A DNA stretch of 64,000 nucleotides from Spirochaetia bacterium (lineage in GTDB: Bacteria; Spirochaetota; Spirochaetia; CADAEX01): NCBI GenBank assembly GCA_963662795.1, contig OY759746.1:3840001-3904000 (forward strand), in the 5' to 3' direction. The position numbers were made by a program, and so were the translations under genes. Positions 12,577 to 54,303 of the stretch are shown here, in pieces. Positions within the stretch are counted from its first letter, which is position 1; each line of letters begins with the position of its first letter. The notes under the pieces are model-generated. The model worked only from the letters and a program-made list of their open reading frames with translations. It had not been told where the DNA came from and did not search any database.

Positions 12577-12584
12577 GGATAGTT

Positions 12585-12776: not shown

Positions 12777-12897
12777 TTATTATTGCTCCTGTATCGGATG
12801 GTCCGGAATTAACTGATTAATATTACAGATTTTTTATAAAAAAGTAAATAGCTCCGAAAAATATAAACTCATGCCGTGCTTCAAAGTTTCCCTGGAA

Positions 12898-31438: not shown

Positions 31439-31473
31439 TTTTTGCTGCTTCACATCAGTTACGGAGACTATAA

Positions 31474-33371: not shown

Positions 33372-36074
33372 CTATTTTACGCTTAAGTTGAAAACACCGT
33401 CCCAGTTTTTGGGAGGCGGAGTCTTCTTGAAATCAACGCATCTTTTAATATAGGTAACCGCCGGCCCGTCATCGGGTGAAATACCTAATACCTTATTGAA
33501 CAGATCGGCACACCCGTCCCAGTCCTGCCCCTGGAATTTCTCAAGCGCGCTGTGCGAAAGCTCAATAATTTCAAGTGTCTTATCCGATGCTTCCTTTTTC
33601 TCATCAATAAGCTCAAAAAGCTGTACCGGCCTGTTTATGCCCACTACCCTTACAGGATCAAGCTTCCTGCAGGCAAACCGGTTTTTTGTCTGGCTGATTG
33701 TATACTCGCTTGCAAGGATCCAGGTGCCGTACTGTTTGTTTACCCCTTCAAGGCGGGCGGCAAGGTTTACAGCGTTGCCCATAATTGTATAGTCCATCTT
33801 CCGTGCCGTACCCATGTTGCCGACAACCATCTCGCCGGTATTAATCCCTATTCTTGTCATCAGGGGGCTCGGCGCAATCTGTTTATCAAGAAACACCTTG
33901 TTTATTTCCATCTCCATCTTCTTCATCTTTACTGCCGCCGAGCATGCCTGCTGCGCGTGGTCCGGAAACTCTACCGGCGCTCCGAAAAAGGAGATAATCG
34001 CGTCGCCCTCATATTTATCGATAGTACCCCTGCTGTCGAGTATGATATCACTCATGGCAGTGAGATACTCGTTAAGAAGTTTTACAAGGTCTGACGGGTC
34101 AAGAGACTCTGAAATTGTGGAAAAGCCCCTTACATCAGTAAAAATCGCAGTAAGCTCTTTTTTATCTCCCCCGAGTTTAAGTTTTTCAGGATCGTTCATC
34201 AGCTGTGAGATTACATCCTGTGAAAGATAATGGCCGAATGCGTTTCTGATAAATATTTTTTCCTTTGATGTGGTTATCAGGTTTACCATTGTATAGATAA
34301 TAAATGTAACAAATACTGATGCTGCAGGTGTAATAACATTTACATACATACCGGTATATCTGAAAACAGCTGCGGCAGATGCAAGTATTAAAGCGATAAA
34401 AGAGAGCCCGATAATTATGGAAGTGCCGGCGCTTCTTCTTTTAATAACAGCAAAAACAAGAAGTGAAAACAGAAATGAGGCAAGTATTGGAATCCAGAAA
34501 GGAGCAATTGAAATAAACTGCCTGCTTAATATTGTGTTTGCAACTGAAGCATGAGTTCCTACATTCATATACTCTTTCTCAAAAGGGTTTACGCCAATAT
34601 CGGTAGTTGATGTTCCGGTATGCCCGATAATGCAGAAAGACCCTTCGACATTTTCCCTTATAATCCGTCTTGCCTCCGCAAGTTCCGTGGATATTGAAAT
34701 TGTCTTTGCGAATATATCAGGTACATCCTTTTTAAGCTCTGTATACTCATTTTTAACGTCAGCAGGAATTGAATCAGAATTAATTACCGCATCAATATCG
34801 TTAAGAATCCTTTTTTCCGCATCCCCTGACAAAAAAGAGGCTGTTTCAAGAAGGAAATATTCCCTTACCTGCGCATATTCATCGAAATTTGATGTATCGC
34901 CTGACTCAACCATCCGGCTGAGAAGATCATCAGCATATTGATAGAGATCATAAAGAGGAGTATCGCCGTTATAATATTCAAGATATCCTGCATGTTTCAT
35001 AAGCTTAAGATTCTCGGCAAGCGACTTATAAAGCCTGTTGTGCATCTCAAGATACCAGTAAGTCATGTGCCTGAAACTTTTTTCATAGCTTTTTACAGGC
35101 CAGTTGATAAGAAGCTGACCGTCAACAAGTGGTATTGAGATATCCTCGGTTTTACCGTCAGGAAGGACCGCCCCTTTTAACAGAAGACTTCCTTTTCCTG
35201 CCTTAATCTCAGGCTTTCCCAGCCAGTCATAAAGCGGCGAAAAAGCAAGCTGGGGAAAGTACCTGCCCTTATAAACCCTTAACAGGTCTATCCTTCTCCT
35301 TACCCCGTCGTTATCGATAAACACATTGGGAAACCCAGCTCCCCTGCCGTTTTTAAGTACAGGTGCTATCGCGGGACGCAGGTCATCAGCCCGGAAAAAA
35401 ATATCTCCCCCTGAATCAATTTTTATGGAGGAAATCGGGATATTTTCAGATGCCCACTCTTTCAGTTCCGCAGGAACGCTGTCGTCAGTCCCTTTAAACA
35501 TATTAACAGTAAAAAAAGCCTTGCCGAAATACCTTGCAGCCTTTCCCAGGTACTCATCATTATCCCGAGCCACACTGCCCATGGTATCGAGCAGATTAAG
35601 CTTTATGCTGTTGTTGATCTCCTTAAGCTGGGAAGCAAAATCAGATGCATCCCGCACACGCAGCTGCCCTGAGGAAATCGCCCCGAAAAGGTCTGAAATA
35701 TTGCTGTTAATTGTATCAAACTGCTGGTTTAAGGTATCAGGTATTTTATTTTCAAGAAATTCTGCATTAATCCCTCTTGGGCTTTTTTCCGTATATTCAA
35801 TATCAAATACAGCATATTCAGCCCTGAATTCTTTCAGGAGAAGCAGCCCGTCCGCCATTATGCTCCTGCTCCAGGGCCACACTCCTACTTTTGAGATAGC
35901 AAGATCATCAACGTCAATCAATACAATCTTCTTCTCTTCCGGAACTTCCGGCTTTATTCTTAAAAAAAGGTCATAAGCCCTGTGTTCATTGTCCTCCATG
36001 ATCTGGGTAAAACTTAATATGGTAAATACAGCCGCAACAGCAAATGGCATAAAATAAAGCAGATTTTTTTTCAT
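33372..36074 (-). CDS. CHASE2-domain class III adenylate cyclase (copy 1)
   Basis: N-terminal TM, CHASE2 motifs (WPWSR, D.DGVRR), 3 TM, FTDVRGFS, DKYEGDA, DYTIMGNAVNLAARLE, C-terminal TPR-like tail ending WDGV; G-rich RBS before ATG 36074. Confidence 0.93.
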   Translation of the reverse strand: MKKNLLYFMPFAVAAVFTILSFTQIMEDNEHRAYDLFLRIKPEVPEEKKIVLIDVDDLAISKVGVWPWSRSIMADGLLLLKEFRAEYAVFDIEYTEKSPRGINAEFLENKIPDTLNQQFDTINSNISDLFGAISSGQLRVRDASDFASQLKEINNSIKLNLLDTMGSVARDNDEYLGKAARYFGKAFFTVNMFKGTDDSVPAELKEWASENIPISSIKIDSGGDIFFRADDLRPAIAPVLKNGRGAGFPNVFIDNDGVRRRIDLLRVYKGRYFPQLAFSPLYDWLGKPEIKAGKGSLLLKGAVLPDGKTEDISIPLVDGQLLINWPVKSYEKSFRHMTYWYLEMHNRLYKSLAENLKLMKHAGYLEYYNGDTPLYDLYQYADDLLSRMVESGDTSNFDEYAQVREYFLLETASFLSGDAEKRILNDIDAVINSDSIPADVKNEYTELKKDVPDIFAKTISISTELAEARRIIRENVEGSFCIIGHTGTSTTDIGVNPFEKEYMNVGTHASVANTILSRQFISIAPFWIPILASFLFSLLVFAVIKRRSAGTSIIIGLSFIALILASAAAVFRYTGMYVNVITPAASVFVTFIIYTMVNLITTSKEKIFIRNAFGHYLSQDVISQLMNDPEKLKLGGDKKELTAIFTDVRGFSTISESLDPSDLVKLLNEYLTAMSDIILDSRGTIDKYEGDAIISFFGAPVEFPDHAQQACSAAVKMKKMEMEINKVFLDKQIAPSPLMTRIGINTGEMVVGNMGTARKMDYTIMGNAVNLAARLEGVNKQYGTWILASEYTISQTKNRFACRKLDPVRVVGINRPVQLFELIDEKKEASDKTLEIIELSHSALEKFQGQDWDGCADLFNKVLGISPDDGPAVTYIKRCVDFKKTPPPKNWDGVFNLSVK

Positions 36075-36206
36075 GTCCCCTCCCCCGGGATTTTTTATAT
36101 TATTCAATTTTTAATTTCATTCTACAGTAATTTATATTATAATTGTATAATGTAATTATTAGAAATGAAATTACAAAAAGATATTTTAAAAAAACAAAGG
36201 AGTTTA

Positions 36207-36656
36207 ATGATGAAAAGAGCATTTTTATCTGCAGCTCTTTTTCTGACCGCGATGCTCATTTACAGTCAATCCAACGAGGAAATAGACGCATTTATGGCTA
36301 AAAAACAGGCGGATGTAGCAACAGCAGCTTACTTCACCCTTTCAGCAGCCGGAATGCAGAACGCCGCATCCACAGCAGAGGCAGCTCCCGGATACCTTAA
36401 TGAGAACAAGTGGTTTAAGGAAGAGCTTAAAGGGGATGAGCTGCTTAAAGCAAGTGACGCATCATACCTTATCATGAAGGCATTCGCGCAGAAAGGCGGC
36501 CTTATGTATACAATCGCACCGGGACCGCGCTATGCGCTTAAGGAGATCAAGTACCTCAAACTCATTGATCAGAAAACAGACCCCGCAAAGATAATGACCG
36601 GGGAAGAGTTCATGATACTTCTTTCTGAATTCCTGTCATGGAAGGAGACAAACTGA
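36207..36656 (+). CDS. Small secreted protein with SLH-like helical repeats (module gene A, copy 1)
   Basis: AAGGAG RBS, signal peptide, GGLMY...PGPRYA.KE.KY motif shared with 51038..51520. Confidence 0.75.
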   Translation: MMKRAFLSAALFLTAMLIYSQSNEEIDAFMAKKQADVATAAYFTLSAAGMQNAASTAEAAPGYLNENKWFKEELKGDELLKASDASYLIMKAFAQKGGLMYTIAPGPRYALKEIKYLKLIDQKTDPAKIMTGEEFMILLSEFLSWKETN

Positions 36657-37972
36657 TGAAAAAAGCACTTTTTATTTTACTTGCGGCATTTGCCGCAGTA
36701 TCGTTAGCATCAGCTGTCGATTTCGGGGGAAACCTTGAAAATTATTCACTTATAACCAGCGATGATGATTCACAGAAACAGACAGACAAGGCAGCCCTCT
36801 GGTTTGGCGTATCCCCGTCTGAAACAATATATATCAAGGGACAGGGAAGCGTTGCCTACTCACTCGATGATTACGACTTTCTTGCCGATATTGACTACCT
36901 CTATATCACACAGGATTTCCCGGGAGCAATAAATGAGCAATCAGCTTTCACCTACAAGGCGGGAAGGTTTTTCCAGTCGGAATTCACAGGTAAAGTATTT
37001 GCCCACAGGCTTGACGGGGCTCTTTTTACTCTTGCGCTTCCGATAGCAAACTTTTCACTCGGAGCAGGCTATACAGGTCTTTTACTCAAGCCGGTTTCCG
37101 GCGTAAACAATACAGCGGCAGATATGGTTGATGATTCTGATGATGATGTAAAACTTGCACCCAAAAAGATGATAGTAAGACTTGGCGCAAGCTTTATTGA
37201 TATTATGCCTGCGCAGCAGCTTGATGTTTCGTTTGTAACCCAGTTTGACATGAGAAGCGACGACCTGCTTGAAGACGGCGATGCTGCAACAGAAGACGGC
37301 AACGGCGGAAAACTCAACACATACTATATAGGAGCAGGGCTTTCCGGGGCAATTACAGGTTCATTTATATATGACACATACCTTTATTATCAGCTTGGGA
37401 AAACCCTTACCCTGATTGATGACGAATTTACCGATAAACCCATAAGCGCAATTCTCCTGGGCGGAAGCCTGAGCTACCTTAACAGGGAGTTCTACAGGTC
37501 AAAGGTGACCGGGTCTCTGCTTTACGCAAGCGGCGATGACGATAATACCTCGGTTTATGAAGGCAACACAAAGGGAAGCGGCACACAGTTCATGCCGGTG
37601 TCCTCATCTTCAACCGGGCTTATATTCTCCCCAACTCCGTCTAATTTACTTAAGGCAGGGCTTGAATACTCAATGAAGCCTTTTGCGGAAAGCAAAAATA
37701 TGATGAAAAACTTCCAGGCTGCAGTCAGCGCCGGAATTTTCTACAAGGCATCTGAAGGAGCTGTTTCGGAGTCCAAGGCTTCGGCAGTCTCTGATGAAAA
37801 ATACCTTGGAACTGAAGCGCTGCTGACGCTCAACTTCAGGCCGGTATCGGATTTCGGTCTCACGCTCGCAGGAGGAGCTTTCTTCCCGAACGACAGCAAA
37901 GACGGCCCAATGGGTGAGGATTACAGGGATACTGAGGCAGGCGTAATGATCAACGTCTCTCTCAGTTTCTAG
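36656..37972 (+). CDS. Outer-membrane beta-barrel protein (alginate-export-like; module gene B, copy 1)
   Basis: Signal peptide, amphipathic strands, YLGTE, C-terminal beta-signal INVSLSF; TGATG coupling to the upstream gene. Confidence 0.8.
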   Translation: MKKALFILLAAFAAVSLASAVDFGGNLENYSLITSDDDSQKQTDKAALWFGVSPSETIYIKGQGSVAYSLDDYDFLADIDYLYITQDFPGAINEQSAFTYKAGRFFQSEFTGKVFAHRLDGALFTLALPIANFSLGAGYTGLLLKPVSGVNNTAADMVDDSDDDVKLAPKKMIVRLGASFIDIMPAQQLDVSFVTQFDMRSDDLLEDGDAATEDGNGGKLNTYYIGAGLSGAITGSFIYDTYLYYQLGKTLTLIDDEFTDKPISAILLGGSLSYLNREFYRSKVTGSLLYASGDDDNTSVYEGNTKGSGTQFMPVSSSSTGLIFSPTPSNLLKAGLEYSMKPFAESKNMMKNFQAAVSAGIFYKASEGAVSESKASAVSDEKYLGTEALLTLNFRPVSDFGLTLAGGAFFPNDSKDGPMGEDYRDTEAGVMINVSLSF

Positions 37973-38026
37973 CTTTTATACAGATATGATTATGGATGAA
38001 TTGCATCCAAGTTTTTGGAGGACAAA

Positions 38027-38716
38027 TTGAGATTACATAAAATACACATTCCAATGATAATTCTGCTGTTGCTTACATCATCAGCTGTTTTCGCAGCAGA
38101 TGCAGTAATAAAGAATTTCACAGGAAGGGTTGAGATTCAAAATGCAGGCTCTTCTGCATGGAGCGCCGTCTCGCAGGGACAGAGCATAAAAACCGGAACA
38201 CTGATATCAACAGGTTTTAATTCAAACGCAGTACTTGACCTTGGCAGCTCCGAGATTTTCCTGAAACCGCTTACAAGGGTTTCTGTCGACGATCTTGAGA
38301 CAAGCGGCAGTACAATCAAGACAGACCTCAACCTGAAGCTCGGCAAAATAAGGGCGGATGTAAAAACGACAGAAGGACTCAAGCACAACTTCACCCTGCG
38401 CACCCCTGTATCCACTGCCGCTGTACGCGGAACAGTATTTGAAGCCGGAGTCTCATCCCTTGATGTAATTCAGGGAATGATTGCATATTCAAATAAAATA
38501 GGACAGAAACGCAGTGTTGGAGGCGGCTCTTCCTCTTCCATGCCTGGAACAGGGTTCAGCTCGCCTGAATCAGCGCTTGAGGCAATAGCCGCAAGTTTCA
38601 GCATAGACACAACAACAGCTGTTGAAACCGGTGCCGAAATTATAAGCGATTATGTAAAAATCAGGACCACAGGCGAAGGTACAGTTGTCGTTACAGTTAT
38701 AAGTAAGCCGTATTAA
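38027..38716 (+). CDS. Secreted FecR-domain protein (module gene C, copy 1)
   Basis: GGAGG then TTG start; signal AVFA|AD; ISTGFNS, LKPLTR, TPVSTAAVRGT. Confidence 0.88.
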   Translation: MRLHKIHIPMIILLLLTSSAVFAADAVIKNFTGRVEIQNAGSSAWSAVSQGQSIKTGTLISTGFNSNAVLDLGSSEIFLKPLTRVSVDDLETSGSTIKTDLNLKLGKIRADVKTTEGLKHNFTLRTPVSTAAVRGTVFEAGVSSLDVIQGMIAYSNKIGQKRSVGGGSSSSMPGTGFSSPESALEAIAASFSIDTTTAVETGAEIISDYVKIRTTGEGTVVVTVISKPY

Positions 38717-38728
38717 AGGAGGTCAGAA

Positions 38729-39196: not shown

Positions 39197-39223
39197 CTAT
39201 ATTCCGGAAGTATAGTTATCACT

Positions 39224-39253
39224 AAAAAGCCGGCTGTAACACCGGCTTTTTTT
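39224..39253. terminator. Bidirectional rho-independent terminator
   Basis: AAAAAGCCGG-ctgtaaca-CCGGCTTTTTTT between convergent genes. Confidence 0.85.
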
Positions 39254-39272
39254 ATACACCTGATAACTGTTC

Positions 39273-39701: not shown

Positions 39702-39940
39702 AAAACCAATCTGCAATAACATAATATAAGTGTCAACCTTCCGTGCAAGAGATATTCATTCAATTTATTTTCAGAAATTCCTTTTATTTTCATTTTTTCT
39801 AAATTATAATTAAATCATTGACTAATGTTTGGTTTAATTTATTTATAAGTGAATAAAACTGTTTTACCTTTTTTTTCAACTTGAACCGGTTTTACCCAAA
39901 CTATTCTACTTCTGTCATTTTTTTTATTCAGGAGGGATAA

Positions 39941-40639
39941 ATGATTAAAGTTAAATTTCCCTTTATAGTCCTGCTTCTTTTTTTACTGTCATCAACTGCG
40001 GGATTTGCAGCAGATCAGGCAATTCTGAAAACTCTTTCCGGCAAAGTGGAACTTAACACAGGAGGCACTTCATGGATCCCGGCAAAACAGGGACAGACAA
40101 TAGCCAAAGGGACAGTTATTTCTACCGGATTCAATTCAAATGCTGTTGTAGACCTCGGAAGCTCGGAAATTTTTTTAAAACCTCTTACAAGAATAGCGCT
40201 CGAAGATCTTTCAACAAGCGGCAATACAATAAAAACAAACCTTAACCTGAGGCTCGGCAGAATTGACGCAGATGTTAAAACAACTGAAGGGCTTAAGCAT
40301 AACTTCACTCTGAGAACACCTGTCTCGACTGCCGCGGTCCGGGGAACCAGATTCACAGCAGGGGTTGCAATGCTTGAAGTAAAAACCGGCAGGATTTCCT
40401 ATTCAAATAAAATAGGACAGAAGAGAAGTGTTTCAGGCGGATCATCCTCTTCTGTTTCAGGCGGCGGCTATACAGCACCTGAGTCAGCGGCTGAAGCAGT
40501 TGTCCAGACATTCAGCACTTTAACAACAACAGTTACAGAAACCGGCACAAGCATTATTGTAAGACCGCCTCCGGCCCTTCCCACAACAGGTACAGTAACA
40601 GTCACATGGGATCTGGATGAATCCGGTCTCCCGATGTGA
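39941..40639 (+). CDS. Secreted FecR-domain protein (module gene C, copy 2)
   Basis: GGAGG RBS; signal AGFA|AD; core near-identical to 38027..38716 (e.g. KTTEGLKHNFTLRTPVSTAAVRGT). Confidence 0.9.
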   Translation: MIKVKFPFIVLLLFLLSSTAGFAADQAILKTLSGKVELNTGGTSWIPAKQGQTIAKGTVISTGFNSNAVVDLGSSEIFLKPLTRIALEDLSTSGNTIKTNLNLRLGRIDADVKTTEGLKHNFTLRTPVSTAAVRGTRFTAGVAMLEVKTGRISYSNKIGQKRSVSGGSSSSVSGGGYTAPESAAEAVVQTFSTLTTTVTETGTSIIVRPPPALPTTGTVTVTWDLDESGLPM

Positions 40640-40658
40640 AGAAGATAAGGAGTAATTT

Positions 40659-41525
40659 ATGAAAATAAATATATTTTTATTTATTTTACTAATATTTATT
40701 ATTTTAATATCCTGTTACCAGCAGCCTGAATCAGCAGATTCAGGATCAGTATCTATCAGACTTCAGTCAGATATAATGAGGGATGCTCCTGCTGGTTATG
40801 ACGGGGAACTGGTACTTGCAGTTTTCAAGGCTGGAGATCTTGATTCTTTGATAGGTTATTCAGGAGGCAGTATAGCTTCAACAGAAATTTCTTACCTCGG
40901 TGATTTCCCGACTCCGTTGCTGGCAAACAATTCAGTACCTTTTACCGGTAGATCAGGAGTAATCTCATTACTGAATGTACCTTCTGACAGATCTCTTTCG
41001 CTTCTTGTCGAACATTATGGCGGATTATACGGAGTAGAGGGAACATATTATCATTCATATTCCGGAGTATCTGATACATTTGAAGTTAAGGGGGGCGGAA
41101 CCGCTGAAGTAGCAATTACTCTTACCCCAACAACATATGCTGCCGGGATGAGTGTAAATAAATATACTTCCTATACTGCTTCTCATTTCAGATTATATGA
41201 TCCTACACATCTGAGTACAATTTTACATTTCAACGGTAATGAAATTGAATTAATAGATCCCAGTTTTTATGAAACATTTAATATGGAGGATAGGTACGGA
41301 ACAACAGGAACTGTATCTGGAAATAATGCTATTGTCACATTTGATGTTGCGGATGCTATTCTTCCAGGAAGAAAGACACGTGTACTTGTCAGTGAAAATC
41401 AAACCATCTCTCAAAATAATTTCATAGGAATATCTAATGAATTTGAACTGAGACCTGGATTATCAGATTATGTAACTGTAACATATTATCAGTACACTTC
41501 AAGCAGTTCCTGGAACTACAGCTAA
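40659..41525 (+). CDS. Variable lipoprotein (module gene D, copy 2; probably two beta-sandwich domains)
   Basis: AAGGAG RBS; ISC|Y lipobox; FEVKGGGTAEVAITL and FELRPGLSDYVTVTY domain ends. Confidence 0.8.
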   Translation: MKINIFLFILLIFIILISCYQQPESADSGSVSIRLQSDIMRDAPAGYDGELVLAVFKAGDLDSLIGYSGGSIASTEISYLGDFPTPLLANNSVPFTGRSGVISLLNVPSDRSLSLLVEHYGGLYGVEGTYYHSYSGVSDTFEVKGGGTAEVAITLTPTTYAAGMSVNKYTSYTASHFRLYDPTHLSTILHFNGNEIELIDPSFYETFNMEDRYGTTGTVSGNNAIVTFDVADAILPGRKTRVLVSENQTISQNNFIGISNEFELRPGLSDYVTVTYYQYTSSSSWNYS

Positions 41526-41536
41526 AGCTGACTCAA

Positions 41537-43324: not shown

Positions 43325-43326
43325 AT

Positions 43327-45135: not shown

Positions 45136-45189
45136 GTGTTCCCGGTGATTTTTTAAAAAACCCCCGGCAGAAAAATAAGGAAAATAAAA

Positions 45190-46167
45190 TTGAAAAAAAT
45201 ACTTGTTACAGGCGGCGGCGGTTTTATCGGCTCGCACCTGTGTGAAAAACTTTTAAATGACGGTAATTCTGTTATCTGCCTTGATAATTTTTACACCGGC
45301 AGCAGATATAATGTTGAGCACTTAACCGGTAATAAATATTTTAAACTCCTGATTCATGATGTAACTGTTCCGGTCAATATTGAAACAGATCAGATATATA
45401 ATCTTGCATGCCCGGCAAGTCCTGTTCATTATCAGTCCGATCCGGTACAGACAATAAAAACGTCTGTTCAGGGCGCAATTAATATGCTTGAACTCGCTAA
45501 AATAACCGGAGCGCGAATTCTTCAGGCTTCAACATCAGAGGTTTACGGAGATCCGGAAGTTCATCCCCAGAAAGAAGATTACTGGGGCAGGGTCAATCCT
45601 ATTGGTATCAGAAGCTGCTATGACGGAGGGAAAAGGTGCGCGGAAACCCTTTTTTTCGATTATCACCGCCAGTACGGCGTTCAAATAAAAATTGCAAGAA
45701 TTTTCAATACCTATGGACCAGGTATGCAGTCGAATGATGGAAGAGTTGTAAGCAATTTTATTGTACAGGCACTAAAAAATGAAAATCTTACGATTTTTGG
45801 TACAGGGAAACAGACCAGAAGTTTCTGTTATGTTGATGATATCGTAGATGGTTTGGTTAAGCTAATGAACAGCCGGGATAATTTTACAGGCCCTGTCAAT
45901 ATCGGCAATCCTGATGAAATTTCAATACTTGAACTGGCTGAAAAAGTAATCTCGCTGACCGGTTCCTATAGCAGCCTTGTTTACAACCCTCTGCCGGCCG
46001 ATGATCCTCAGAGAAGGAAACCGATAATTGACCTTGCTGTGAATGAGCTGGGATGGCAGCCTGAAACAAAAATGCAGGAAGGGTTAAAGAAAACGATTGA
46101 ATATTTTAACGGCGTCCTTTCCCGGAAAAATCAGGCTGGGCCGGTTCAATTCAAACCGGCCCATTAA
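45190..46167 (+). CDS. UDP-glucuronate decarboxylase (UDP-xylose synthase)
   Basis: [59 protein letters not shown]. Confidence 0.93.
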
Positions 46168-46183
46168 TATTCTATTTAAGGAT

Positions 46184-48916
46184 TTACTTAACTCCCAGGT
46201 TGAATACTCCGTCCCAGTTGGCTGCCGGCGGGGTTTTCCTGTATTTCTGACACCTGTCCATAAATGTTGAGGCCGGCCCGTCTTCCGGCAGGAGTTTTAA
46301 TATCTCGCTGAAAAGTTTTTCCGCCTTCTCCCATTCTTTTTCCTCAAAAGCATCAAGCGCGCCGTGAAACAGTTCAACACCTTCAACAGTTTTACGGTCT
46401 GCGGCCGACTTTTCCTCCAGTATTTCATAAAGCCTTACCGGAGTATTTATTCCGACAACCCTTACCCTGTCGAGCTTTCTGAATAGAAAAGCATCCCCTG
46501 CCTGGTCTGCTGTTGATTCGCTTGTAAGCAGCCATGTTCCGTACTGCTTGTTGACTCCTTCAAGCCGGGCCGCGAGGTTTACAGCGTTTCCCATTATTGT
46601 ATAGTCCATCTTCCTGGGAGTTCCCATGTTGCCGACAACCATCTCGCCTGTATTGACTCCTACCCTGGTAAGAAGAGGTGAAGGAGTAAGAGAATCACGC
46701 ATGAATCTTTCATTAAGTTCCTTTTCCTCCCTCTTCATTCTTATCGCGGACATACATGCCTTGTATGCGTGGTCTTCAAGATCAATCGGGGCACCGAAGA
46801 AGGAGATAATCGCGTCCCCTTCATATTTATCAATTGTCCCCTTGTATTCAAGGATAATGTCGCTCATCGCGGAAAGATAATAGTTAAGAAGCTTTACAAG
46901 GTCCTGCGGATCAAGGTTTTCAGATATTGTCGAGAACCCCTTAACATCGGTAAATACAGCTGTAAGGTTTTTCTTTTCCCCTCCGAGGTTCAGCCTGTCC
47001 GGGTTAAGGATAAGCTGGCTGATAACGTCAGCCGACAGGTATCTTGAAAAGGCGTTTCGCAAGAAACTTTTCTCGCTTTCGCTCTTTATGAATTTCATTA
47101 TTGAAAGCGCAAGAAATGTAAAAAAGATTACAAGGACAGGAGTCAGAATCGGAAGATATATTTTAAGAAAAATAAAGATTCCTGCTCCCGCGAGTATTAC
47201 AATAAAAAGGAAAATCAAACCAATAAATACAACCTTTTTAGGGTCTGTTTTTCTGGTTGTGAATGTTACAAGAAAAGCAAATATTGAAGCTATAATTCCG
47301 GAAATTGAAACAGGCAGCTCTGTAATAAAATCACCGGAAAGGATTGTGTTTGCGACTGCCGCGTGTGTGCCGACATTCATGTAGTTTTTTTCAAACGGGT
47401 TTACGCCGATATCTGTTGTTGATATACCAGTATAGCCCATAATCGCAAATGAACCGGCAAGTTCTTTTTCAAGTATTCCCCTTATTTCCATAAGCTTTCT
47501 GTAATCACCGTCTACAGCGTCGAATACAGTTTCCACTTCACTGCGGATTGCAAGATATTCATCCTTTTTCGAGATATCAAAATCAGGATGGGCAATAATT
47601 TCATCTATACGGCCGATAATCGCTTTTTCGGCGTTCCCGTCAAGCAGCTCTCCCAATCCCTCAAAAAACATTTTCCTCACACTGCGGTATTCTTCCATCT
47701 CTTCCGGGGCCCTTAACTCTTCCAGTATATCGTCCCTGATGCCGTCGCTGTACCTGTAAAGATCAAGCAGCGGGGTATCGCCTCCGTAAAATGATAAATA
47801 TCCAGCCTTATCCATTATTTCAAGGTTCATCATGATGTTATCCAGAAGCTTGTCATGAACTACAAGGTTGTTGAAGGAAAGCTGTCTGAAGCTGTCAGCG
47901 AAAAGTTTTTTCGGCCAGTGGATGAGCATTTTGCCCTCTTCCGTAAGAGGGATTGTGATATCACGTAAAGAACCGTCAGGATATTTCGCTCCTTTTAAAG
48001 TAACGCGGCTGCCTGTTACAGATATATCCGGATTCCCAAGGTAATCAAAAAGAGGGGCAGCTACAAGCTGGGGATAGAGTTTGCCTTCGTATTCTTTAAA
48101 GACATCAATCCGCCGCCTTACGCCGTCATCATCAACGACAACGTTGGGGAACCCAGCCCCCTTCCCTTTTGAAATGATGGGAAGAATTGCGGGCTGAAGA
48201 GATTTTGCCTTTTCAAAAATTTTATTTTTTTCAGGATCAAAGCCTGATACTTTAACAGGTATGTTTGATTTAACATAATCGGTAAGATCTTCCCTGACAT
48301 TGATGAGCTGAATATCATCAGGGAGCATATTGACCGTAAAGAAAGCCGTATCAAAAAGTCTTGCAGTTTTTCCAAGATAGATATCATTATCCCTGGCAAT
48401 ATGCTGTACTGCATCCAGCAGCTGTTCTTTCAGGGAATCTGTAAGTCCCGCAAGGTCGTTGACATAGTCTTCGGCATCCCTCACATGAATTGATCCGTTT
48501 GCAATTGCGGTAAAAAGGCCGGTGATATTGTCCTTAAGCCCTGCGAACTGGCTGCTGAACAGATCAGGGATAATTTCCTCAAGGTAGCGGGAATCTATCC
48601 CCTGGGGGCTTCTGTCCACATACTCAATATCAAAAACAACATAGGCAGTTTCAAACTCCTTCATCAGTATAAGACCGTCAGCGACAATGTCGCGGCTCCA
48701 CGGCCAGACTCCTACCTGGGCTATGGCAAGATCATCTATGTTAAGCAAGAGTATTTCCTGTCTTTCTTCAATTGTTGGTTTTATATTAAGCAGCACATCA
48801 TAAATCCTTTTTTCCGCTACCCTGTATACAGGCAGTAGGAGCAGAAGCGCGAAAAAACCGGAGACGACTGCCGGAATTATAAAGAGTTTCCATTTATCCA
48901 GGATTATTTTTTTCAT
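46184..48916 (-). CDS. CHASE2-domain class III adenylate cyclase (copy 2)
   Basis: Full-length paralogue of 33372..36074: VGVWPWSR, DGVRRRID, FTDVKGFS, DKYEGDA, MDYTIMGNAVNLAARLE, WDGVFNL. Confidence 0.93.
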   Translation of the reverse strand: MKKIILDKWKLFIIPAVVSGFFALLLLLPVYRVAEKRIYDVLLNIKPTIEERQEILLLNIDDLAIAQVGVWPWSRDIVADGLILMKEFETAYVVFDIEYVDRSPQGIDSRYLEEIIPDLFSSQFAGLKDNITGLFTAIANGSIHVRDAEDYVNDLAGLTDSLKEQLLDAVQHIARDNDIYLGKTARLFDTAFFTVNMLPDDIQLINVREDLTDYVKSNIPVKVSGFDPEKNKIFEKAKSLQPAILPIISKGKGAGFPNVVVDDDGVRRRIDVFKEYEGKLYPQLVAAPLFDYLGNPDISVTGSRVTLKGAKYPDGSLRDITIPLTEEGKMLIHWPKKLFADSFRQLSFNNLVVHDKLLDNIMMNLEIMDKAGYLSFYGGDTPLLDLYRYSDGIRDDILEELRAPEEMEEYRSVRKMFFEGLGELLDGNAEKAIIGRIDEIIAHPDFDISKKDEYLAIRSEVETVFDAVDGDYRKLMEIRGILEKELAGSFAIMGYTGISTTDIGVNPFEKNYMNVGTHAAVANTILSGDFITELPVSISGIIASIFAFLVTFTTRKTDPKKVVFIGLIFLFIVILAGAGIFIFLKIYLPILTPVLVIFFTFLALSIMKFIKSESEKSFLRNAFSRYLSADVISQLILNPDRLNLGGEKKNLTAVFTDVKGFSTISENLDPQDLVKLLNYYLSAMSDIILEYKGTIDKYEGDAIISFFGAPIDLEDHAYKACMSAIRMKREEKELNERFMRDSLTPSPLLTRVGVNTGEMVVGNMGTPRKMDYTIMGNAVNLAARLEGVNKQYGTWLLTSESTADQAGDAFLFRKLDRVRVVGINTPVRLYEILEEKSAADRKTVEGVELFHGALDAFEEKEWEKAEKLFSEILKLLPEDGPASTFMDRCQKYRKTPPAANWDGVFNLGVK

Positions 48917-49066
48917 AAGTACCTATCCCCTTAATTAAAAAGTATATGTGATTTTCTTATTTATTTACAACCAATAATTTTGTTTTTCCGGCACGGGGTA
49001 TATTTTTGAGCATTATGGGTTTATAATAATTTTATAATAAATTAATTCGGGAGGATTATCTTAGAC

Positions 49067-50090
49067 GGCCAGAAATTCCTAGCGCAATAAACTAATATTG
49101 TGACAGGAGTTTTAAGTGAGTTACAAAAGAATGAATCTCAATGAAAGAATGGCCATTTTTCAGATGATTTACACCAAAAGATTAAAGCTATCACAAATAG
49201 CAAGTAATCTTGGCCGAAGAGCTTCAAGTATTACAAGAGAAATAAAACGCGGTACTGATGAAGGATATTACAATCCTTTAATTGCAGAGTATGAGCATTT
49301 AAGGCAAAGAAAAAATCAGAGCCCCAAATTAAAAATAGACAACAAGTCATGGCAGCTTATAAAACCCAAACTCCAACTCCGGTGGTCCCCACAGCAAATT
49401 GCCAAATGGCTGGAAATAAATTATCCTTCAGATAAAGTGAGTGATAAAACAATTTATAACTATGTCCATTTCCACATGAGGGGAGAGCTTAAAAAACTAG
49501 CGCTTAAAGATTTAAGACTCAAAGGAAAGAAAAGAAAGAGTGCAAATAAGGACGAAAAACGGGGTAAATTAAAAGATATTACCCTTATAGACGAAAGGCC
49601 TGCTGAAATTAACTCACGGAAAGTTCCAGGACACTGGGAAGGAGATCTTCTCATTGGAAAGGACCATAAATCAGCAATCTGCGTAATAGTTGAACGTAAA
49701 ACTAGGTTTATCCAGCTTGATCTGTTAAAAACATATGATGCAAATACAGTAAGAAAAACAATAGAGAAAAGGTTTAAGAAGATATCTCCTCTTCTAAGAA
49801 AATCTCTGACTCTTGATCAGGGTAAAGAGAACAGTGAGTTCAAAAAACTCAAAGAAAATCTTAATATTGATGTATACTTTTGCCATCCGGCATCTCCCTG
49901 GGAAAAGGGAACATGTGAAAACACAAATGGCTTGATTCGTGATATGCTTGATGAAGTAGATGATTTCAGAAAGCTTTCGCAGTATGATGTATCACGAGTA
50001 GCAAGGCTATTGAATGAGAGGCCAAGAAAAACTCTTGACTTCATAACACCTAAAGAAGCTATTGCCAATTTGCGCTAGGAATTTCTGTGC
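49067..50090 (+). mobile_element. IS30-family insertion sequence
   Basis: Perfect 18-bp inverted repeat CAGAAATTCCTAGCGCAA (49070-49087 / 50070-50087), extendable to 21 bp with 2 mismatches; flanked by the 2-bp direct repeat AC. Confidence 0.9.
49116..50078 (+). CDS. IS30 family transposase
   Basis: HTH (IA..LGR..SSITREIKR), WSPQQIA, GHWEGDL, TLDQGKE, PWEKGTCENTNGLIR, LNERPRKTL. Confidence 0.96.
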   Translation: MSYKRMNLNERMAIFQMIYTKRLKLSQIASNLGRRASSITREIKRGTDEGYYNPLIAEYEHLRQRKNQSPKLKIDNKSWQLIKPKLQLRWSPQQIAKWLEINYPSDKVSDKTIYNYVHFHMRGELKKLALKDLRLKGKKRKSANKDEKRGKLKDITLIDERPAEINSRKVPGHWEGDLLIGKDHKSAICVIVERKTRFIQLDLLKTYDANTVRKTIEKRFKKISPLLRKSLTLDQGKENSEFKKLKENLNIDVYFCHPASPWEKGTCENTNGLIRDMLDEVDDFRKLSQYDVSRVARLLNERPRKTLDFITPKEAIANLR

Positions 50091-50095
50091 ACATT

Positions 50096-50903
50096 ATGAA
50101 AAAGATTATTTCCTCGCCTTTAATGCTTATCTTTTCAATTCTAATACTTACAGGCGTATTTTTCTCAGGATGCAATTCAGATACCACATCCGACGGCGGG
50201 AGATGTTATCGGGACATGGATCAAGGTCTGGGAAGGTGACCCTTACCAGATTCCTTCGGAAGGTGAAGGGCCCTTCGCAGATACCCTGATCTTTGATGTC
50301 GGGGACACCGCACTCGAAGCTGTTTTTTATATGAATACCGAACAGGTAGGCGGGTTTAAGGGAACATATTCAATTAGTGATGATGAAATTGTTGTTTCAG
50401 TGACCCATACATGGAATGAGGAATGGGATTGGGAAGGAGAGAACGATCCTGTGTGGAATGAAGAATCCGATGAATATGTTTTCCTTTTTACTCCCGGCAG
50501 CAGCACTCTTGCAGTAACAGATTTCTATGAAGAAGTTATTGTAATGGATAAGATAACATTTGGAAAACCGGACTTTCTCTCCGATCCGCCGTTTGGATGG
50601 TTTGACGGGGAAAGTGTATATTTAGCATTTGAAGTGACTGGTGAAAATCCTTATAGTTATGTGTGGGGTTCTCAATACAAACTTGGCACATGGGATGCAT
50701 CCGGGACAGAGAACGGATATATACGCACTGTTGTGACTAGTTATAGTATAGGAGACACCGCGCCATACTTAAATCTGAATTGGGGGTTTCTAAATCCTTA
50801 TAGTTATTATAAGGGTGAAGGTATTCAGCTTGATATAGAGATGTATTACGGTGATGGTATTACCACTATCACATTCGAACCTGATACGGCATCCATCGAA
50901 TAA
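50096..50903 (+). pseudogene. Frameshifted lipoprotein (lipocalin-like GTW motifs)
   Basis: ATG 50096 gives MKKIISS...FFSG|CNSD and stops at 50237-50239. The +1 frame from GGCGGGA (~50195-50201) gives GDVIGTWIKVW... continuous with ORF 50331..50903. Confidence 0.75.
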
Positions 50904-51037
50904 TCAGTATGTTCATGATAAACAGCATTTTTTTCACTCTTTTCTGGTTTTTACTGGAAAAGCATTTTATAATTATAGGAAGCATTATTGCGTTTAAATA
51001 CGGAATTGATAGAGATTTTAACTTAGGAGGTAGTTTA

Positions 51038-51520
51038 ATGCCTTTTTTTACTGGCAAAAGGATTCTGAGAGCAGCTTTAATTGCAGTTATCTTCTGCTGT
51101 GCTGTGTTCACGGTTTCCGCGGATTTTAATACGATACTTGATTCTATCCTTACAGAGGATAAGATATCCTTCGGCAGCGCGTCATATATTCTTCTGACAG
51201 GTTCAGGAGCACTGAGTGAAGACGCAACCATCGAAGAGGCGGCCGCTAAAATGGCTGAAATGATTCCGCAGGCAGACGCATCGGCGGATAAACCTGTAAC
51301 TATGGGTGAATTTTCCTATATGGCTATGAAAACATACGGGATAAGCGGAGGAATAATGTACCGCTTTTTTCCAGGCCCACGCTACGCAATCCGCGAACTG
51401 AGATACAAAAAAATAGTACAGGGAAACGCATACAGCGGTATGAACCTTTCATCTGAAAGGGCCTTGAGGATTATGGGCAGGGTACTTGACAGGGAGGAGT
51501 CGAAAAATGCGGAAAAATAG
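51038..51520 (+). CDS. Small secreted protein with SLH-like repeats (module gene A, copy 2)
   Basis: AGGAGG RBS; signal peptide; GGIMY...PGPRYA.RE..Y; DKPVTMGEF. Confidence 0.75.
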   Translation: MPFFTGKRILRAALIAVIFCCAVFTVSADFNTILDSILTEDKISFGSASYILLTGSGALSEDATIEEAAAKMAEMIPQADASADKPVTMGEFSYMAMKTYGISGGIMYRFFPGPRYAIRELRYKKIVQGNAYSGMNLSSERALRIMGRVLDREESKNAEK

Positions 51521-52805
51521 AATTATTTTTACAACAGTAATAGTGATGATGCTTCTCGCTCCGTCATGTATCTTTGCGATTAGTATGGAAGCAGGCGGCA
51601 CTTTTTATAACAGCACGGGTTTTGTCTCAGACGGTATTGAAGATACAGACCTTGAGCAGCTTAATACACTTACCTTGCGTTTTGATGCGTACACGGAATC
51701 GGAAACAGGGGCCAACGGCACATTCACAGCTCAGGGAAGGTATGAATATACTGATGAAAGATCATTCCTCCTTGACGCCGAAATATTACGTCTTAAAGGG
51801 GCATTCCCCGGCGCAATGGGAGAAACATCAATAATTGAGGCATCTGCCGGAAGATTTTTCTTCAGCGACCCGGCAGGGATGATACTCACCCATACCGCAG
51901 ACGGAGCTTCCTTTGAGCTGATGTATCCGAAGGTAAGGCTTATGGCAGCAGGAGGATATACCGGATTGATTATCAATCCTTCGAGCGATATAAGGATGAC
52001 CCGTATAGACTTAAGCGAAACAGATCTTGAAATGGAAGATAATTTTTACGGGCCGAAAAGAGCTTTCGGCCAGTTCGGCTTAACATTTCCTGAACTCTGG
52101 TGGCTCAACTCCCTATCTCTTTTTACCCTTGCACAGTTTGACCTGCGGGATGAGGATGAAGGAACTGTTATGAATACACAGTACCTTGGAGTACAGACTG
52201 AAAGAAGCTACGGCAGGAACCTTTATCAGGACCTTTTTTTAATCCTTCAGGCCGGACAGCTGAAAACACCTGACCTCGAAGACAGGGTCGGCTACGGACT
52301 GCTTTTAGGGCTCCGCCTCAGATACCTTAAAGAGAATTTTTTCGGTTCAAGGTTTGAATTCAGGGCCCTTGGTGCCCCTCCCGATATTTCTACAGACGAT
52401 CTTTCAGACAAGATTCCATTCGGAGTTCTCGGATTTGTCCCCATGAATCAGCCTGATCTCGGGGAAGCGGTTTCACCGTCACTTTCAGGTCTCGGGCTTT
52501 TTGACCTCAATTATTCCTTCAGGCCGTTTTACAACAGCAAATCAGAAACTGCGGCAGGAATTCAGCCTGGTTTAGGGGCAAAAGGATATTTTAGGACATA
52601 CTCGGTTAAAGTTGACTGGATAGACACAGATCCTGATTCAGACTCTCTTTATCTCGGCACTGAAATTAATGCCTCGCTGGTCTGGAGAATTTTTTCCGAT
52701 CTCGGAATTGACATAAATGGCGCTTATTTTATTCCTTCAAGCACAATCTCTGAAGACATGGATACAATATGGGCGCTCAATTTTAATTTATCTGTAAGTT
52801 TTTAG
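51507..52805 (+). CDS. Outer-membrane beta-barrel protein (module gene B, copy 2)
   Basis: Signal peptide; AGRFF, H..DGA, GYTGL...P and YLGTE shared with copy 1; C-terminal FNLSVSF. Confidence 0.8.
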   Translation: MRKNRIIFTTVIVMMLLAPSCIFAISMEAGGTFYNSTGFVSDGIEDTDLEQLNTLTLRFDAYTESETGANGTFTAQGRYEYTDERSFLLDAEILRLKGAFPGAMGETSIIEASAGRFFFSDPAGMILTHTADGASFELMYPKVRLMAAGGYTGLIINPSSDIRMTRIDLSETDLEMEDNFYGPKRAFGQFGLTFPELWWLNSLSLFTLAQFDLRDEDEGTVMNTQYLGVQTERSYGRNLYQDLFLILQAGQLKTPDLEDRVGYGLLLGLRLRYLKENFFGSRFEFRALGAPPDISTDDLSDKIPFGVLGFVPMNQPDLGEAVSPSLSGLGLFDLNYSFRPFYNSKSETAAGIQPGLGAKGYFRTYSVKVDWIDTDPDSDSLYLGTEINASLVWRIFSDLGIDINGAYFIPSSTISEDMDTIWALNFNLSVSF

Positions 52806-52822
52806 TTTAGGAGGTATCAGGT

Positions 52823-53524
52823 ATGATACGTAAAATGTTTATTTTTTATTTGTTATTGTTGATAGTATCTGCTTCTGCGCTCTACGGGGCAGCACAAAAC
52901 GCAGTTGTTGTTTCAGCTTCAGGAAAGGTCGAGTACAAGGCGGAAGGGGCCGCATGGACCGCTGTAAAAGAGGGAACAGAGATTCCGCCCGGCTCAACAA
53001 TTTCTACCGGTTTTAATTCAAAAGCAGTTATTGAGATGGGCTCATCCACCCTTGAAGTTAAGCCCCTTACAAGGATGAGGCTTGATAAACTTGCGGAACA
53101 GGACGGAGTTATATCTACAGACCTCTTCCTCAGAGTCGGCAGGGTAAAAGCGGAAGTAAAGGCAGTTGAAGGGCTGCAGCACAGTTTTACCTTAAAAAGC
53201 CCGGTTACCACTGCGTCCGTTAGGGGAACAGGATTTGATTTTGACGGCGTAAACCTAAAGGTAAGAAACGGCGTTGTAAAAATGAGCAACAGGTTCAGGC
53301 ATTCAGCATCGTATAAAGCCGGTGAATCCGGCTCTTCCACCGGTATAACTCCTCCGAAGGGAGGCTCTGAAGGACGGGAAAGTGATATAGTTGTGAGCGC
53401 AGACACATCCGATGTTTTAGGCGGAGGAGAAGATACCGATCCCACAACGTCAGGGGGCGGAAGCTCTTCCGGTGTCCAGTACGGCAGCATTGGCGTCAAC
53501 TGGACCGTCTACATTGTTGAATAA
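52823..53524 (+). CDS. Secreted FecR-domain protein (module gene C, copy 3)
   Basis: AGGAGG RBS; ISTGFNS, KPLTR, SPVTTASVRGT; Gly/Ser/Asp linker and a terminal beta-strand. Confidence 0.88.
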   Translation: MIRKMFIFYLLLLIVSASALYGAAQNAVVVSASGKVEYKAEGAAWTAVKEGTEIPPGSTISTGFNSKAVIEMGSSTLEVKPLTRMRLDKLAEQDGVISTDLFLRVGRVKAEVKAVEGLQHSFTLKSPVTTASVRGTGFDFDGVNLKVRNGVVKMSNRFRHSASYKAGESGSSTGITPPKGGSEGRESDIVVSADTSDVLGGGEDTDPTTSGGGSSSGVQYGSIGVNWTVYIVE

Positions 53525-53541
53525 TAGGCAGGGAGGTTTAT

Positions 53542-54255
53542 ATGTTTAATAAAAATTTTATTTTAAAAACAGTTTTGCTGTTTTTTGTCATACTGGCATT
53601 CGGCGGGTGCTATCAGATGATTGAATCATCTGAAGGAGACCTTGTTCTTAATGCTTCAATTCCAGCCCGCGCAGCAGAAAACCTGTCGGGAGATATATGG
53701 GTCGTAGGTATTGTCCTTGATGCCGCGTTTGAAGAACAGCTTAAAGAAATCAACAGGATAGGCGATATCCAGGATGCAGATGACGGAATTGAGGATTATC
53801 TTGATGACGATCTGGATGATCTGTGGCAGGATGCAATTCAGAAAGGGGCTGTCCGCTTTGACGGAGGACGTTTTTATTTCCAGTTCAAAATGACTATACC
53901 CGATTCTGATACAGGGAATTTTACAATTTCAGGAATCCCTGCAAATAAAAAATATTTTCTCTATGTAGCAGTCTTTGATAATGAAGTTACATCTCTTGAT
54001 GAGTTTGATGAAGACCCTGGTCTTGTTATGGATATAAGGTATTATGACCCTGCTGATATTGCTGATCCCTTTAACAGAATACCTGACAGTACTCCTGCCG
54101 GATGGTATTGTTTCAAGGATTGGGATTTTGAATATAACAACGGAAATCCTCGGCTTGGTACCGACACTGAAATCTGGACAACTGCATCAGAGCAGCCGTT
54201 TACCGTGGAAGCAGGTAAAGCTACATCGGTCGATATACTTCTTGTAGATTTTTAG
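53542..54255 (+). CDS. Variable lipoprotein (module gene D, copy 3)
   Basis: GGGAGG RBS; GGC|Y lipobox; very acidic; ends PFTVEAGKATSVDILLVDF. Confidence 0.8.
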   Translation: MFNKNFILKTVLLFFVILAFGGCYQMIESSEGDLVLNASIPARAAENLSGDIWVVGIVLDAAFEEQLKEINRIGDIQDADDGIEDYLDDDLDDLWQDAIQKGAVRFDGGRFYFQFKMTIPDSDTGNFTISGIPANKKYFLYVAVFDNEVTSLDEFDEDPGLVMDIRYYDPADIADPFNRIPDSTPAGWYCFKDWDFEYNNGNPRLGTDTEIWTTASEQPFTVEAGKATSVDILLVDF

Positions 54256-54276
54256 CTTGTTTTTTAATTCAATCAG

Positions 54277-54303
54277 AGCGGGGCTTTGTCCCCGCTTTTT
54301 TTT
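54277..54303 (+). terminator. Rho-independent terminator
   Basis: AGCGGGG-ctttgt-CCCCGCT followed by a T-run. Confidence 0.85.

Follow-up and report, generated by a model that had tools for sequence, protein, structure and literature searches.

What do the CHASE2 adenylate cyclases of spirochaetes sense, and do the genes encoded beside them belong to the answer? The question is raised by a 64,000-nucleotide (nt) stretch of DNA from a Spirochaetia bacterium (assembly GCA_963662795.1, contig OY759746.1), here called the window, which covers positions 3840001-3904000 of a genome represented by a single contig of 3.93 Mb that is 98% complete. There are two paralogous sets of genes in the window, each with a CHASE2 cyclase (cyc) divergent from a putative SLH-fold protein (A), a predicted beta-barrel (B), a FecR-domain protein (F) and a lipoprotein (L), and a third F-L cassette lies between the two. 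We give somewhat better than an even chance to the reading that A, B and F, with or without L, form the outer-membrane-anchored periplasmic input device of the neighbouring cyclase, a split counterpart of the NsrA-CyaK relay of Sinorhizobium meliloti built with a different barrel.

The first set comprises cyc1 on the minus strand (33372-36074, its open reading frame (ORF) extendable to 36107 from a TTG start), a CHASE2 class III adenylate cyclase by Pfam, hydropathy, motifs and a match to CyaB, and four genes on the plus strand. A1 (36207-36656, ORF from 36165) is predicted from its model and from VIA-align to encode a secreted SLH-fold protein of about 125 amino acids (aa) when mature, and B1 (36656-37972, ORF from 36638) a likely outer-membrane barrel of 18 strands with a C-terminal Phe (predicted model and Foldseek). 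F1 (38015-38716) encodes a secreted FecR-domain protein (Pfam FecR E value 3e-07, sequence features and a 24-member alignment), and L1 (38729-39196) a 155-aa lipoprotein with the lipobox FISC followed by Y (sequence, BLASTP and a lipobox survey). In the second set, cyc2 on the minus strand (46184-48916; Pfam, BLASTP and motifs) is accompanied on the plus strand by the BLASTP-identified paralogues A2 (51038-51520, ORF from 50909) and B2 (51507-52805, ORF from 51486), which overlaps A2 and again ends in Phe, by F2 (52823-53524), a secreted FecR-domain protein (Pfam FecR 1.6e-06 and BLASTP), and by L2 (53542-54255), a 237-aa lipoprotein with the lipobox FGGC followed by Y (sequence and lipobox survey). 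The extra cassette, F3 (39941-40639, plus strand; secreted, with a FecR domain by Pfam, BLASTP and comparison with relatives) and L3 (40659-41525, plus strand; 288 aa, lipobox LISC followed by Y by sequence and lipobox survey), is separated from the first set by a GNAT gene.

By BLASTP the two cyclases are 50% identical over 902 aa (E 0), A1 and A2 26% (E 6e-16), B1 and B2 28% (E 5e-33), and F1 and F2 42% (E 7e-45); F1 and F3 are 68% identical (E 8e-78) and diverge only in the tail, after residue ~190. On these alignments the paralogy of the two sets lies far above chance. The genes are tightly packed, as the A1 stop and the probable ATG of B1 (36656) overlap, and 12-19 nt separate each F from its L. 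All genes of the repeated architecture described by the original prediction were therefore confirmed in place by Pfam and BLASTP, along with their tight coupling and the F3-L3 cassette between the copies (39941-41525). The terminator that it assigned to each operon is a strong one after L2, a hairpin of 9 pairs (6 GC) with a T run (54275-54298, plus strand), while L1 is followed by only a weak terminator-like hairpin and T run (39232-39247, plus strand). Promoter-like sites number 52, against 46.7 expected from shuffled sequence, which is no excess.

Two paralogous sets in one genome could stem from a single segmental duplication, and it could be supposed that one ancestral segment was simply copied, its genes having no common function. 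The distribution of the genes in other spirochaetes makes such an accident very improbable. We compared 22 barrel-anchored loci of the class, own genus excluded, with 20 A-anchored loci from 20 genomes and 17 families of the phylum. The barrel profile matches in 19 of the 41 genomes of the class sample, the window genome included, and A, B and F stand side by side in 19 of the 22 barrel-anchored loci; of the other three, one ends 196 nt after B, one is without a detectable A and one has a weak barrel match only. Across the phylum the A profile matches in 102 of 301 genomes and 49 of 126 genera. F adjoins A in all 20 A-anchored loci, and B was found by profile in 17 of them and in one more by Pfam Alginate_exp, the last two having an unassigned ORF of 386-387 aa in the same place. 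The gene order differs by lineage (A-B-F, F-A-B, A-F-B or A-F-barrel), and this permutation points to selection for proximity. As judged from sequence, A-B-F is a trio that occurs across the phylum, is inherited as a block and is closely linked with CHASE2 cyclases. At two loci the trio has in addition a large Big_5 or unassigned protein beside it, one of 1499 aa (L047) and one of 1056 aa (L034).

The tie to the cyclases is seen both in neighbourhoods and in genomes. The neighbourhood survey, set beforehand as the test that could refute the original prediction, found a full CHASE2 cyclase in 25 of 42 loci (14 of the 22 barrel-anchored, 11 of the 20 A-anchored). Within the class the cyclase is mostly divergent from the trio, and elsewhere in the phylum it lies on the same strand, in co-directional arrays such as A-B-F-L-cyclase (L013, L039, L041, L044), F-A-B-cyclase (L042), cyclase-A-F-B (L046, gaps of 19 nt) and A-B-F-cyclase (L025, gap of 4 nt). 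These genomes of 2-5 Mb carry 2-5 CHASE2 genes each, and by our own estimate chance would place the trio next to a cyclase in about 1 locus in 100; the observed rate is far above this expectation. CHASE2 occurs in 230 of the 301 genomes, in 102 of 102 that are A-positive versus 128 of 199 that are A-negative (Fisher p 1e-15, a value overstated as related genomes are not independent). The recurrence of the trio and of its CHASE2 link in many families, with the order permuted, and the restriction of the A family to CHASE2-bearing genomes both speak against a mere duplication of unrelated genes.

Both window cyclases look, from their sequences, like active adenylate cyclases. CHASE2 (PF05226) scores 97.9 bits in cyc1 (E 9e-28) and 82.6 bits in cyc2 against a cut-off of 26.3, and Guanylate_cyc (PF00211) 75 bits (E 7e-21) and 68 bits. 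By hydropathy cyc1 has one N-terminal transmembrane segment and then about 495 aa in the periplasm, followed by three transmembrane segments, the catalytic domain and a C-terminal tail, the hydrophobic segments being residues 4-26, 520-546, 547-575 and 575-602. The motifs FTDV, DKYEGD, MDYT and GNAVNLAARLEG are present in both cyclases and are invariant or nearly so among 15 orthologues. The nearest solved relative is the Pseudomonas aeruginosa adenylate cyclase CyaB (3r5g, E 2.9e-38), which has the DKxxGD and MDYT motifs in common with them, and the remaining solved relatives are all named adenylate cyclase except three, two rhodopsin-guanylyl cyclase fusions and one 'nucleotide cyclase'. We take individual residues of these motifs to have metal-binding, substrate-defining and transition-state roles. 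In class IIIb cyclases the Lys presumably pairs with the Thr of MDYT rather than with the Asp, and either pairing points to ATP; the ATP specificity that had been read from the K of DKYEGD and the D of MDYT thus stands, with Thr in place of Asp as the pairing residue. The genome has five CHASE2 genes, among them a third full-length cyclase paralogue (cyc3, genome 2547988-2550714) that is 40% identical to cyc1. The C-terminal tail of about 70 aa in both window cyclases (33372-33600 and 46184-46400, ending ...NWDGVFNL..K) has several invariant positions in the 15 orthologues; it recurs at the ends of other cyclases and stands alone at genome 808456-808668.

Of the trio, A is predicted to be a secreted protein with an SLH fold. 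A1 begins with a signal peptide and its model is confident (pLDDT 94); in VIA-align residues 40-162 reach Z 10.5 to Sap-SLH 6bt4 (118 aa aligned, root-mean-square deviation 3.5), 9.8 to SpaA-SLH 6cwc and 8.9 to 6qvm, the next row being 5.9 and covering the signal-peptide helix only. Foldseek ranks 1-14 are likewise all SLH domains, but weak (E 0.1). Neither A1 nor A2 has a Pfam match (E 0.01) or an NCBIfam match, the A profile found nothing useful among sequences in the PDB, and the genome is without a match to PF00395 (SLH) or to a CsaB-type pyruvyl transferase (PF04230). The A family has at least 732 clusters; among the best 120, all that carry a name are called 'hypothetical' and those named for an organism come from Spirochaet* records.

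B is predicted to be an outer-membrane barrel of 18 strands whose model comes closest to AlgE. B1 has a signal peptide besides its C-terminal Phe, and its model has a mean pLDDT of only 70; AlgE chains occupy Foldseek ranks 1-17 (E 6e-15 to 4e-13, TM 0.63-0.69; the best of them at TM 0.64-0.67) and OmpM ranks 19-21. B1 and B2 have no Pfam match at E 0.01, the Slam families included, and PF13372 (Alginate_exp) has no match in the genome, while some B homologues do reach PF13372 (P0018, P0020 and one at L040). A reading of B as an alginate exporter was considered and dropped, being supported neither by Pfam nor by the neighbouring genes in the 12 loci scanned. The module is similar to the SLH-porins (OmpM/Slp) and to AlgE in that the gene for the SLH-fold A overlaps that of a barrel whose model is nearest to AlgE and also matches OmpM1. 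It differs from the SLH-porins in that A is a separate protein without a PF00395 signal in a genome without a CsaB-type pyruvyl transferase, and from AlgE in having no alginate genes and a barrel that falls below PF13372.

The F proteins carry a FecR domain (PF04773) at 31.2 bits in F1, 32.4 in F3 and 28.9 in F2 against a cut-off of 24. Each starts with a signal peptide (e.g. ...TSSAVFA/ADAV), and the FecR domain begins at about residue 60, without an anti-sigma domain or a transmembrane anchor. F1 has its FecR domain at residues 64-154, followed by a Gly/Ser linker, a variable tail and a terminal motif resembling a beta-strand; in most of 24 aligned members this motif shows alternating hydrophobic residues, often with Trp or Phe last. 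A profile search of F against sequences in the PDB returned nothing useful, and Pfam detected no TPR in F or B. Like FecR of the FecR/FecI/FecA system, F has a periplasmic FecR domain that presumably reads an outer-membrane protein. It differs in being without the anti-sigma part and the membrane anchor, as the original prediction had said of these proteins with cleavable signal peptides, and the window is without an extracytoplasmic function (ECF) sigma factor or a TonB-dependent transducer. Pfam detected neither sigma-70 region 2 nor a TonB-dependent receptor barrel in the window, and the 7 Sigma70_r2 and 1 TonB_dep_Rec matches of the genome all lie outside it. On these grounds the canonical FecR/ECF/TonB reading was rejected.

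L1, L2 and L3 are alike over their first ~40 residues only (E 0.006-0.014). A lipoprotein gene of 144-542 aa stands directly behind 24 F genes in the loci of relatives and behind all three in the window, an association that would suit a role in lipoprotein delivery. By this account B, aided by A and F, would act like Slam or type 11 systems and translocate the variable lipoprotein (perhaps F as well) to the surface of the cell. The cyclase would do no more than report on or regulate the traffic, and the short shared N-terminal stretch could be a recognition tag. We consider this improbable. The Slam reading of B was dropped, since at the limit of 0.01 Pfam gave no Slam-family match and the fold search was led by the 18-strand AlgE; lineages with the F-A-B order have no lipoprotein gene behind F, and nothing in the analysis demonstrates surface exposure.

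The closest studied parallel is the NsrA-CyaK relay. In S. meliloti the outer-membrane protein NsrA is reported to be required for signal perception by CyaK and by CyaD1/CyaD2, the signal being of plant origin or the protein uL2 (PMC7529298, PMC13001267; available portions of both), and NsrA residues 600-1200 are described as a beta-barrel in the available part of the first of these papers (PMC7529298). On pSymB an ORF of 1219 aa ends in a stop that overlaps with the start of the gene for a 649-aa CHASE2 cyclase; the record is unannotated, and size, replicon and neighbour suggest that the ORF is NsrA. Pfam places in it a FecR domain at 85-179 (E 2e-15) and TPR repeats at 397-606. By hhalign the FecR part of this ORF is a homologue of F (probability 94.8%, E 5e-08, 132 columns), and therefore the analogy to NsrA rests on a common domain, closer than the loose likeness to NsrA/CyaK originally proposed. 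Given that identity of the pSymB ORF, the studied relay joins a FecR domain and an outer-membrane barrel in one protein, and these are encoded by separate genes here. The two systems agree in that a CHASE2 class III cyclase is encoded beside an outer-membrane component and that a FecR domain and a barrel belong to one unit. They differ in that the spirochaete module has FecR and barrel as separate proteins, that the barrel is AlgE-like, that there are no TPR repeats, that the module additionally has an SLH-fold protein and a variable lipoprotein, and that the periplasmic part of the cyclase has ~495 aa versus ~280 aa in the pSymB cyclase.

FecR and CHASE2 have been linked in print in other lineages as well. 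A Burkholderia operon termed BiofilmReg is reported to encode a LysM-FecR protein and a CHASE2 histidine kinase (PMC5192318), a cluster of Campylobacterota a CHASE2 cyclase, a phosphodiesterase, a FecR-domain protein of the outer membrane and a TPR protein (PMC9239204), and in S. meliloti the FecR-domain protein SMc02177 is encoded beside cyaD1 (PMC5498481). Each of these, as far as the available portions of the reports go, resembles the module in having a secreted or envelope FecR-domain protein beside a CHASE2 sensor and no ECF sigma factor; they differ in being without an SLH-fold protein, an AlgE-like barrel and a variable lipoprotein, a histidine kinase can serve as the output, and none is in Spirochaetota. 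Literature searches on CHASE2 and FecR gave nothing on spirochaetes, a search on FecR, Treponema and adenylate cyclase found nothing, and among the titles listed for FecR, adenylate cyclase, outer membrane and periplasm none describes the module. The view that the five-gene form is uncharacterised holds for this form, but the FecR-CHASE2 link as such is already in print (in the available parts of PMC5192318, PMC9239204 and PMC5498481). What is new is a phylum-wide split variant of the NsrA/FecR-to-CHASE2 theme, and no categorically new system.

The S. meliloti literature also supplies an argument for the opposite direction of control. SMc02177 and SMc02178 are described as targets of Clr and cyclic AMP (cAMP) that are dispensable for signal perception (PMC5498481, in its available portions), and for at least one protein of this kind these data therefore argue for a role in output. 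Applied here, A-B-F-L would be an envelope unit, for instance a wall-tethered porin similar to OmpM or an export pore similar to AlgE together with accessory proteins, that is controlled in its expression or activity by the cAMP of the cyclase via the shared divergent promoter region. An SLH-fold protein together with a barrel does recall the SLH-porin OmpM, which follows the top match AlgE in the fold search, and the 19 matches to cyclic nucleotide monophosphate (cNMP)-binding proteins in the genome could mediate such control; the trios without a nearby cyclase, considered below, would suit it too. We nevertheless regard an output role, the main rival to the input reading, as unlikely. A cyclase inside a co-directional array (L025, L042, L046, L013) fits subunits of one device better than a regulator and its target, and the NsrA-type protein with the same FecR domain is reported to act upstream of CyaK (PMC7529298, as far as available). 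In the 12 loci scanned with Pfam no polysaccharide-synthesis genes recur beside the trio, and the window genome has neither a canonical SLH domain nor the pyruvyl transferase.

Further pairings of FecR and cyclic-nucleotide genes are found in the window genome itself, which has nine Pfam FecR genes. The gene cyc3 is convergent with one for a 150-aa secreted F-like protein (F profile E 9e-12, below Pfam FecR detection), which follows a gene for a 1681-aa Big_5 lipoprotein (genome 2547988-2556356). Another pair lies about 44 kb upstream of the window (genome 3790770-3796266), a gene for a 924-aa dCache-HAMP-class III cyclase and, starting within its stop, a 912-aa FecR-DUF4962-Ig gene; a fusion of cyclase and FecR had been suspected at this site (3.79 Mb), and these are actually two overlapping genes. 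Here FecR-DUF4962 is paired with a cyclase that has another sensor domain than CHASE2, which makes it a pairing of a second type. A 755-aa FecR-PEGA-PQQ (beta-propeller) gene adjoins that of a cNMP-binding/HATPase_c_2 protein (genome 1105395-1109158), and a comparable FecR-PEGA-PQQ protein of 899 aa is encoded at L051 without a cNMP-binding neighbour. No cyclase was detected near four other FecR genes, one of which, the fourth of the window (10631-11608, minus strand; 325 aa, Pfam 1.8e-08), lies among housekeeping genes (miaA-like IPPT, AMMECR1 and Memo). Being away from any cyclase, it indicates that a tie to cAMP genes is not common to all secreted FecR proteins here.

How might a split relay of this kind work? 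B would sit in the outer membrane, where A would tether it to the wall or some other structure of the periplasm. F would be docked via its tail at B, on the inner face of the outer membrane, and extend its FecR domain to the cyclase's CHASE2 part. Any change in the barrel or in the lipoprotein, which may serve as the sensor, would then alter the F-CHASE2 contact across the periplasm, as canonical FecR reads an outer-membrane transducer; CHASE2 would switch cAMP synthesis, and the cAMP would be read by some of the many cNMP-binding proteins of the genome. In the weakest step of this scheme, the variable F tail and the following lipoprotein would act as an exchangeable specificity cassette. We favour the input role because the A-B-F block is conserved in permuted orders, because a CHASE2 cyclase adjoins it in most of the loci surveyed, sometimes in a co-directional array, and because every A-positive genome carries CHASE2. 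The FecR domain shared with an NsrA-type protein beside a CHASE2 cyclase, the repeated occurrence of F-type or FecR genes beside cyclic-nucleotide genes in the window genome, and the FecR-CHASE2 clusters reported from Burkholderiales, Campylobacterota and S. meliloti argue in the same direction. The analysis directly yields the identity of the parts and their topology, as well as their co-inheritance and the FecR domain in common with the NsrA-type protein.

Several observations weigh against an input device, in addition to the SMc02177/SMc02178 data. No cyclase was found in the fetched stretch of 17 of the 42 loci, 5 of which are cut by a contig end within ~3 kb, so the trio can stand alone and its CHASE2 partner, if any, is encoded elsewhere. 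A Pfam scan of the neighbours in 12 loci, of which 10 have no cyclase, revealed no further transducer or sensor protein next to the trio; the genomes concerned do carry CHASE2 genes elsewhere. Against a strict set of five genes stand the 17 loci without a cyclase and the lineages with the F-A-B order, where no lipoprotein gene follows F; the proposed unit holds for the conserved A-B-F and for the CHASE2 link. B shows no similarity to the C-terminal 619 aa of the pSymB ORF (hhalign probability 0.3%), and the SLH likeness of A is one of fold alone. Copy 2 is damaged in the window strain, by an insertion and a pseudogene, and at L021 the cyc2 orthologue is in three pieces (10161-12886) next to an intact Lx-A2-B2-F2-L2, possibly through error in an assembly that is 81% complete. 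Finally, we infer every contact (F with CHASE2, F with the barrel, and those of the lipoprotein) as well as the direction in which information flows. A complex prediction for the periplasmic part of cyc1 (26-519) and mature F1, each with its own alignment, gave a score of 0.00 and a mark of 0.32, a result that counts neither for nor against their contact.

The history of copy 2 can be read from close relatives. Two genomes of the same genus, L021 and L022, have an older layout: response regulator, phosphoglucomutase, cyc1/A1-B1-F1-L1, GNAT, cyc2/Lx-A2-B2-F2-L2, PGPGW protein and tryptophanyl-tRNA synthetase. Copy 2 is accordingly a set of six genes, the additional one being a lipoprotein gene, Lx, upstream of A2. 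In L021 Lx is intact and encodes 272 aa; in the window it is a pseudogene (50096-50903, plus strand) recognised by a frame switch in its translation and by that orthologue. An IS30-family insertion sequence (IS) of 1033 bp (49061-50093, plus strand; transposase 49116-50078, Pfam rve and HTH_38) lies between cyc2 and the divergent operon, 2 nt upstream of the Lx ATG and outside the Lx reading frame. A DNA contig of a related strain joins 49060 directly to 50094 and so shows the empty site. The frameshift in Lx comes from an 11-nt deletion after 50192, the 11 nt being present in the related run X4 and absent in X2. The IS30 element and the broken lipoprotein gene do separate cyc2 from its operon, as was claimed, but the element is not inside Lx, which was broken by the deletion. 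The insertion and the frameshift together have therefore cut off the copy-2 operon from the divergent promoter region and cost it its first gene. The damage at L021, with the cyclase broken and the operon intact, is the reverse of that in the window. The genome has five full-length copies of the element, the window's included, that are 99.6-100% identical, plus one split copy and one small remnant, and the element was probably active recently.

F3 and L3 came to the window with an island. The stretch of F3, L3, two genes that are glycosyltransferase-like or unknown and one for an NAD-dependent epimerase (the last three at 41537-46167, plus strand, by Pfam, GC content and relatives; context outside the core module) is a 6.4-kb insertion in this genome, because the older layout in L021 and L022 is without it and GNAT there abuts cyc2. 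Its GC content is 0.33-0.38 versus ~0.43 around it. The genes of the island are packed behind F3-L3 with gaps of 2-55 nt, and it ends at a two-way hairpin (46137-46163) that is shared with cyc2; the lipoprotein cassette is possibly linked to glycosylation. In a related strain (run X4) F3 is present too, and its contig tracks the window as far as position 40534 in the F3 tail before the sequences part. A metatranscriptome library has a single contig of 2497 nt, from a ~90% identical relative, that covers A2-B2-F2, a weak hint, given possible DNA carry-over, that these genes are expressed in the relative and weak support for the input role; the parts of the window uncovered in the RNA-library run X1 (e.g. 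39812-45123) are not evidence of absence. Upstream of cyc1, a response regulator with a DpiA-like helix-turn-helix and a phosphoglucomutase-like gene (30758-33303) precede the cyclase, also in L021.

The cassette idea is based on the divergence of F1 and F3 after residue ~190, on the difference of the related strain from 40534 in the F3 tail and on the high variability of the lipoproteins. A bolder extension of the input reading is that CHASE2 in general reads an outer-membrane-held FecR adaptor and no small ligand, and that in Spirochaetota a fixed A-B dock with swappable F-tail/lipoprotein cassettes redirects a single cAMP pathway to various cues at the surface. Such swapping would be consistent with the additional F3-L3 cassette of the island, with the strain divergence inside the F3 tail and with the 144-542-aa lipoproteins behind F. 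We put this generalisation forward only tentatively, as a rather doubtful proposition.

CHASE2 is a common bacterial sensor domain, found in 230 of the 301 spirochaete genomes sampled, and its signal was described in 2016 as not known (PMC5192318, available portion). The partners suggested here are separate small proteins, each contact of which can be tested on its own, and the FecR domain is the element that they share with an NsrA-type protein. The A proteins form an unannotated family with a predicted SLH fold in a genome where the canonical SLH domain (PF00395) was not found. To our knowledge the NsrA-CyaK relay of one rhizobium is the only experimental handle on CHASE2 sensing. Were the more general adaptor reading true, the 20-year-old question of what CHASE2 senses would become directly testable in the spirochaete module. 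If instead the module proves to be an output of cAMP, it would still be a conserved cAMP-linked envelope structure. Spirochaete outer membranes are rich in variable lipoproteins, and the input device proposed here suggests a route by which these bacteria may couple events at their surface to cAMP.

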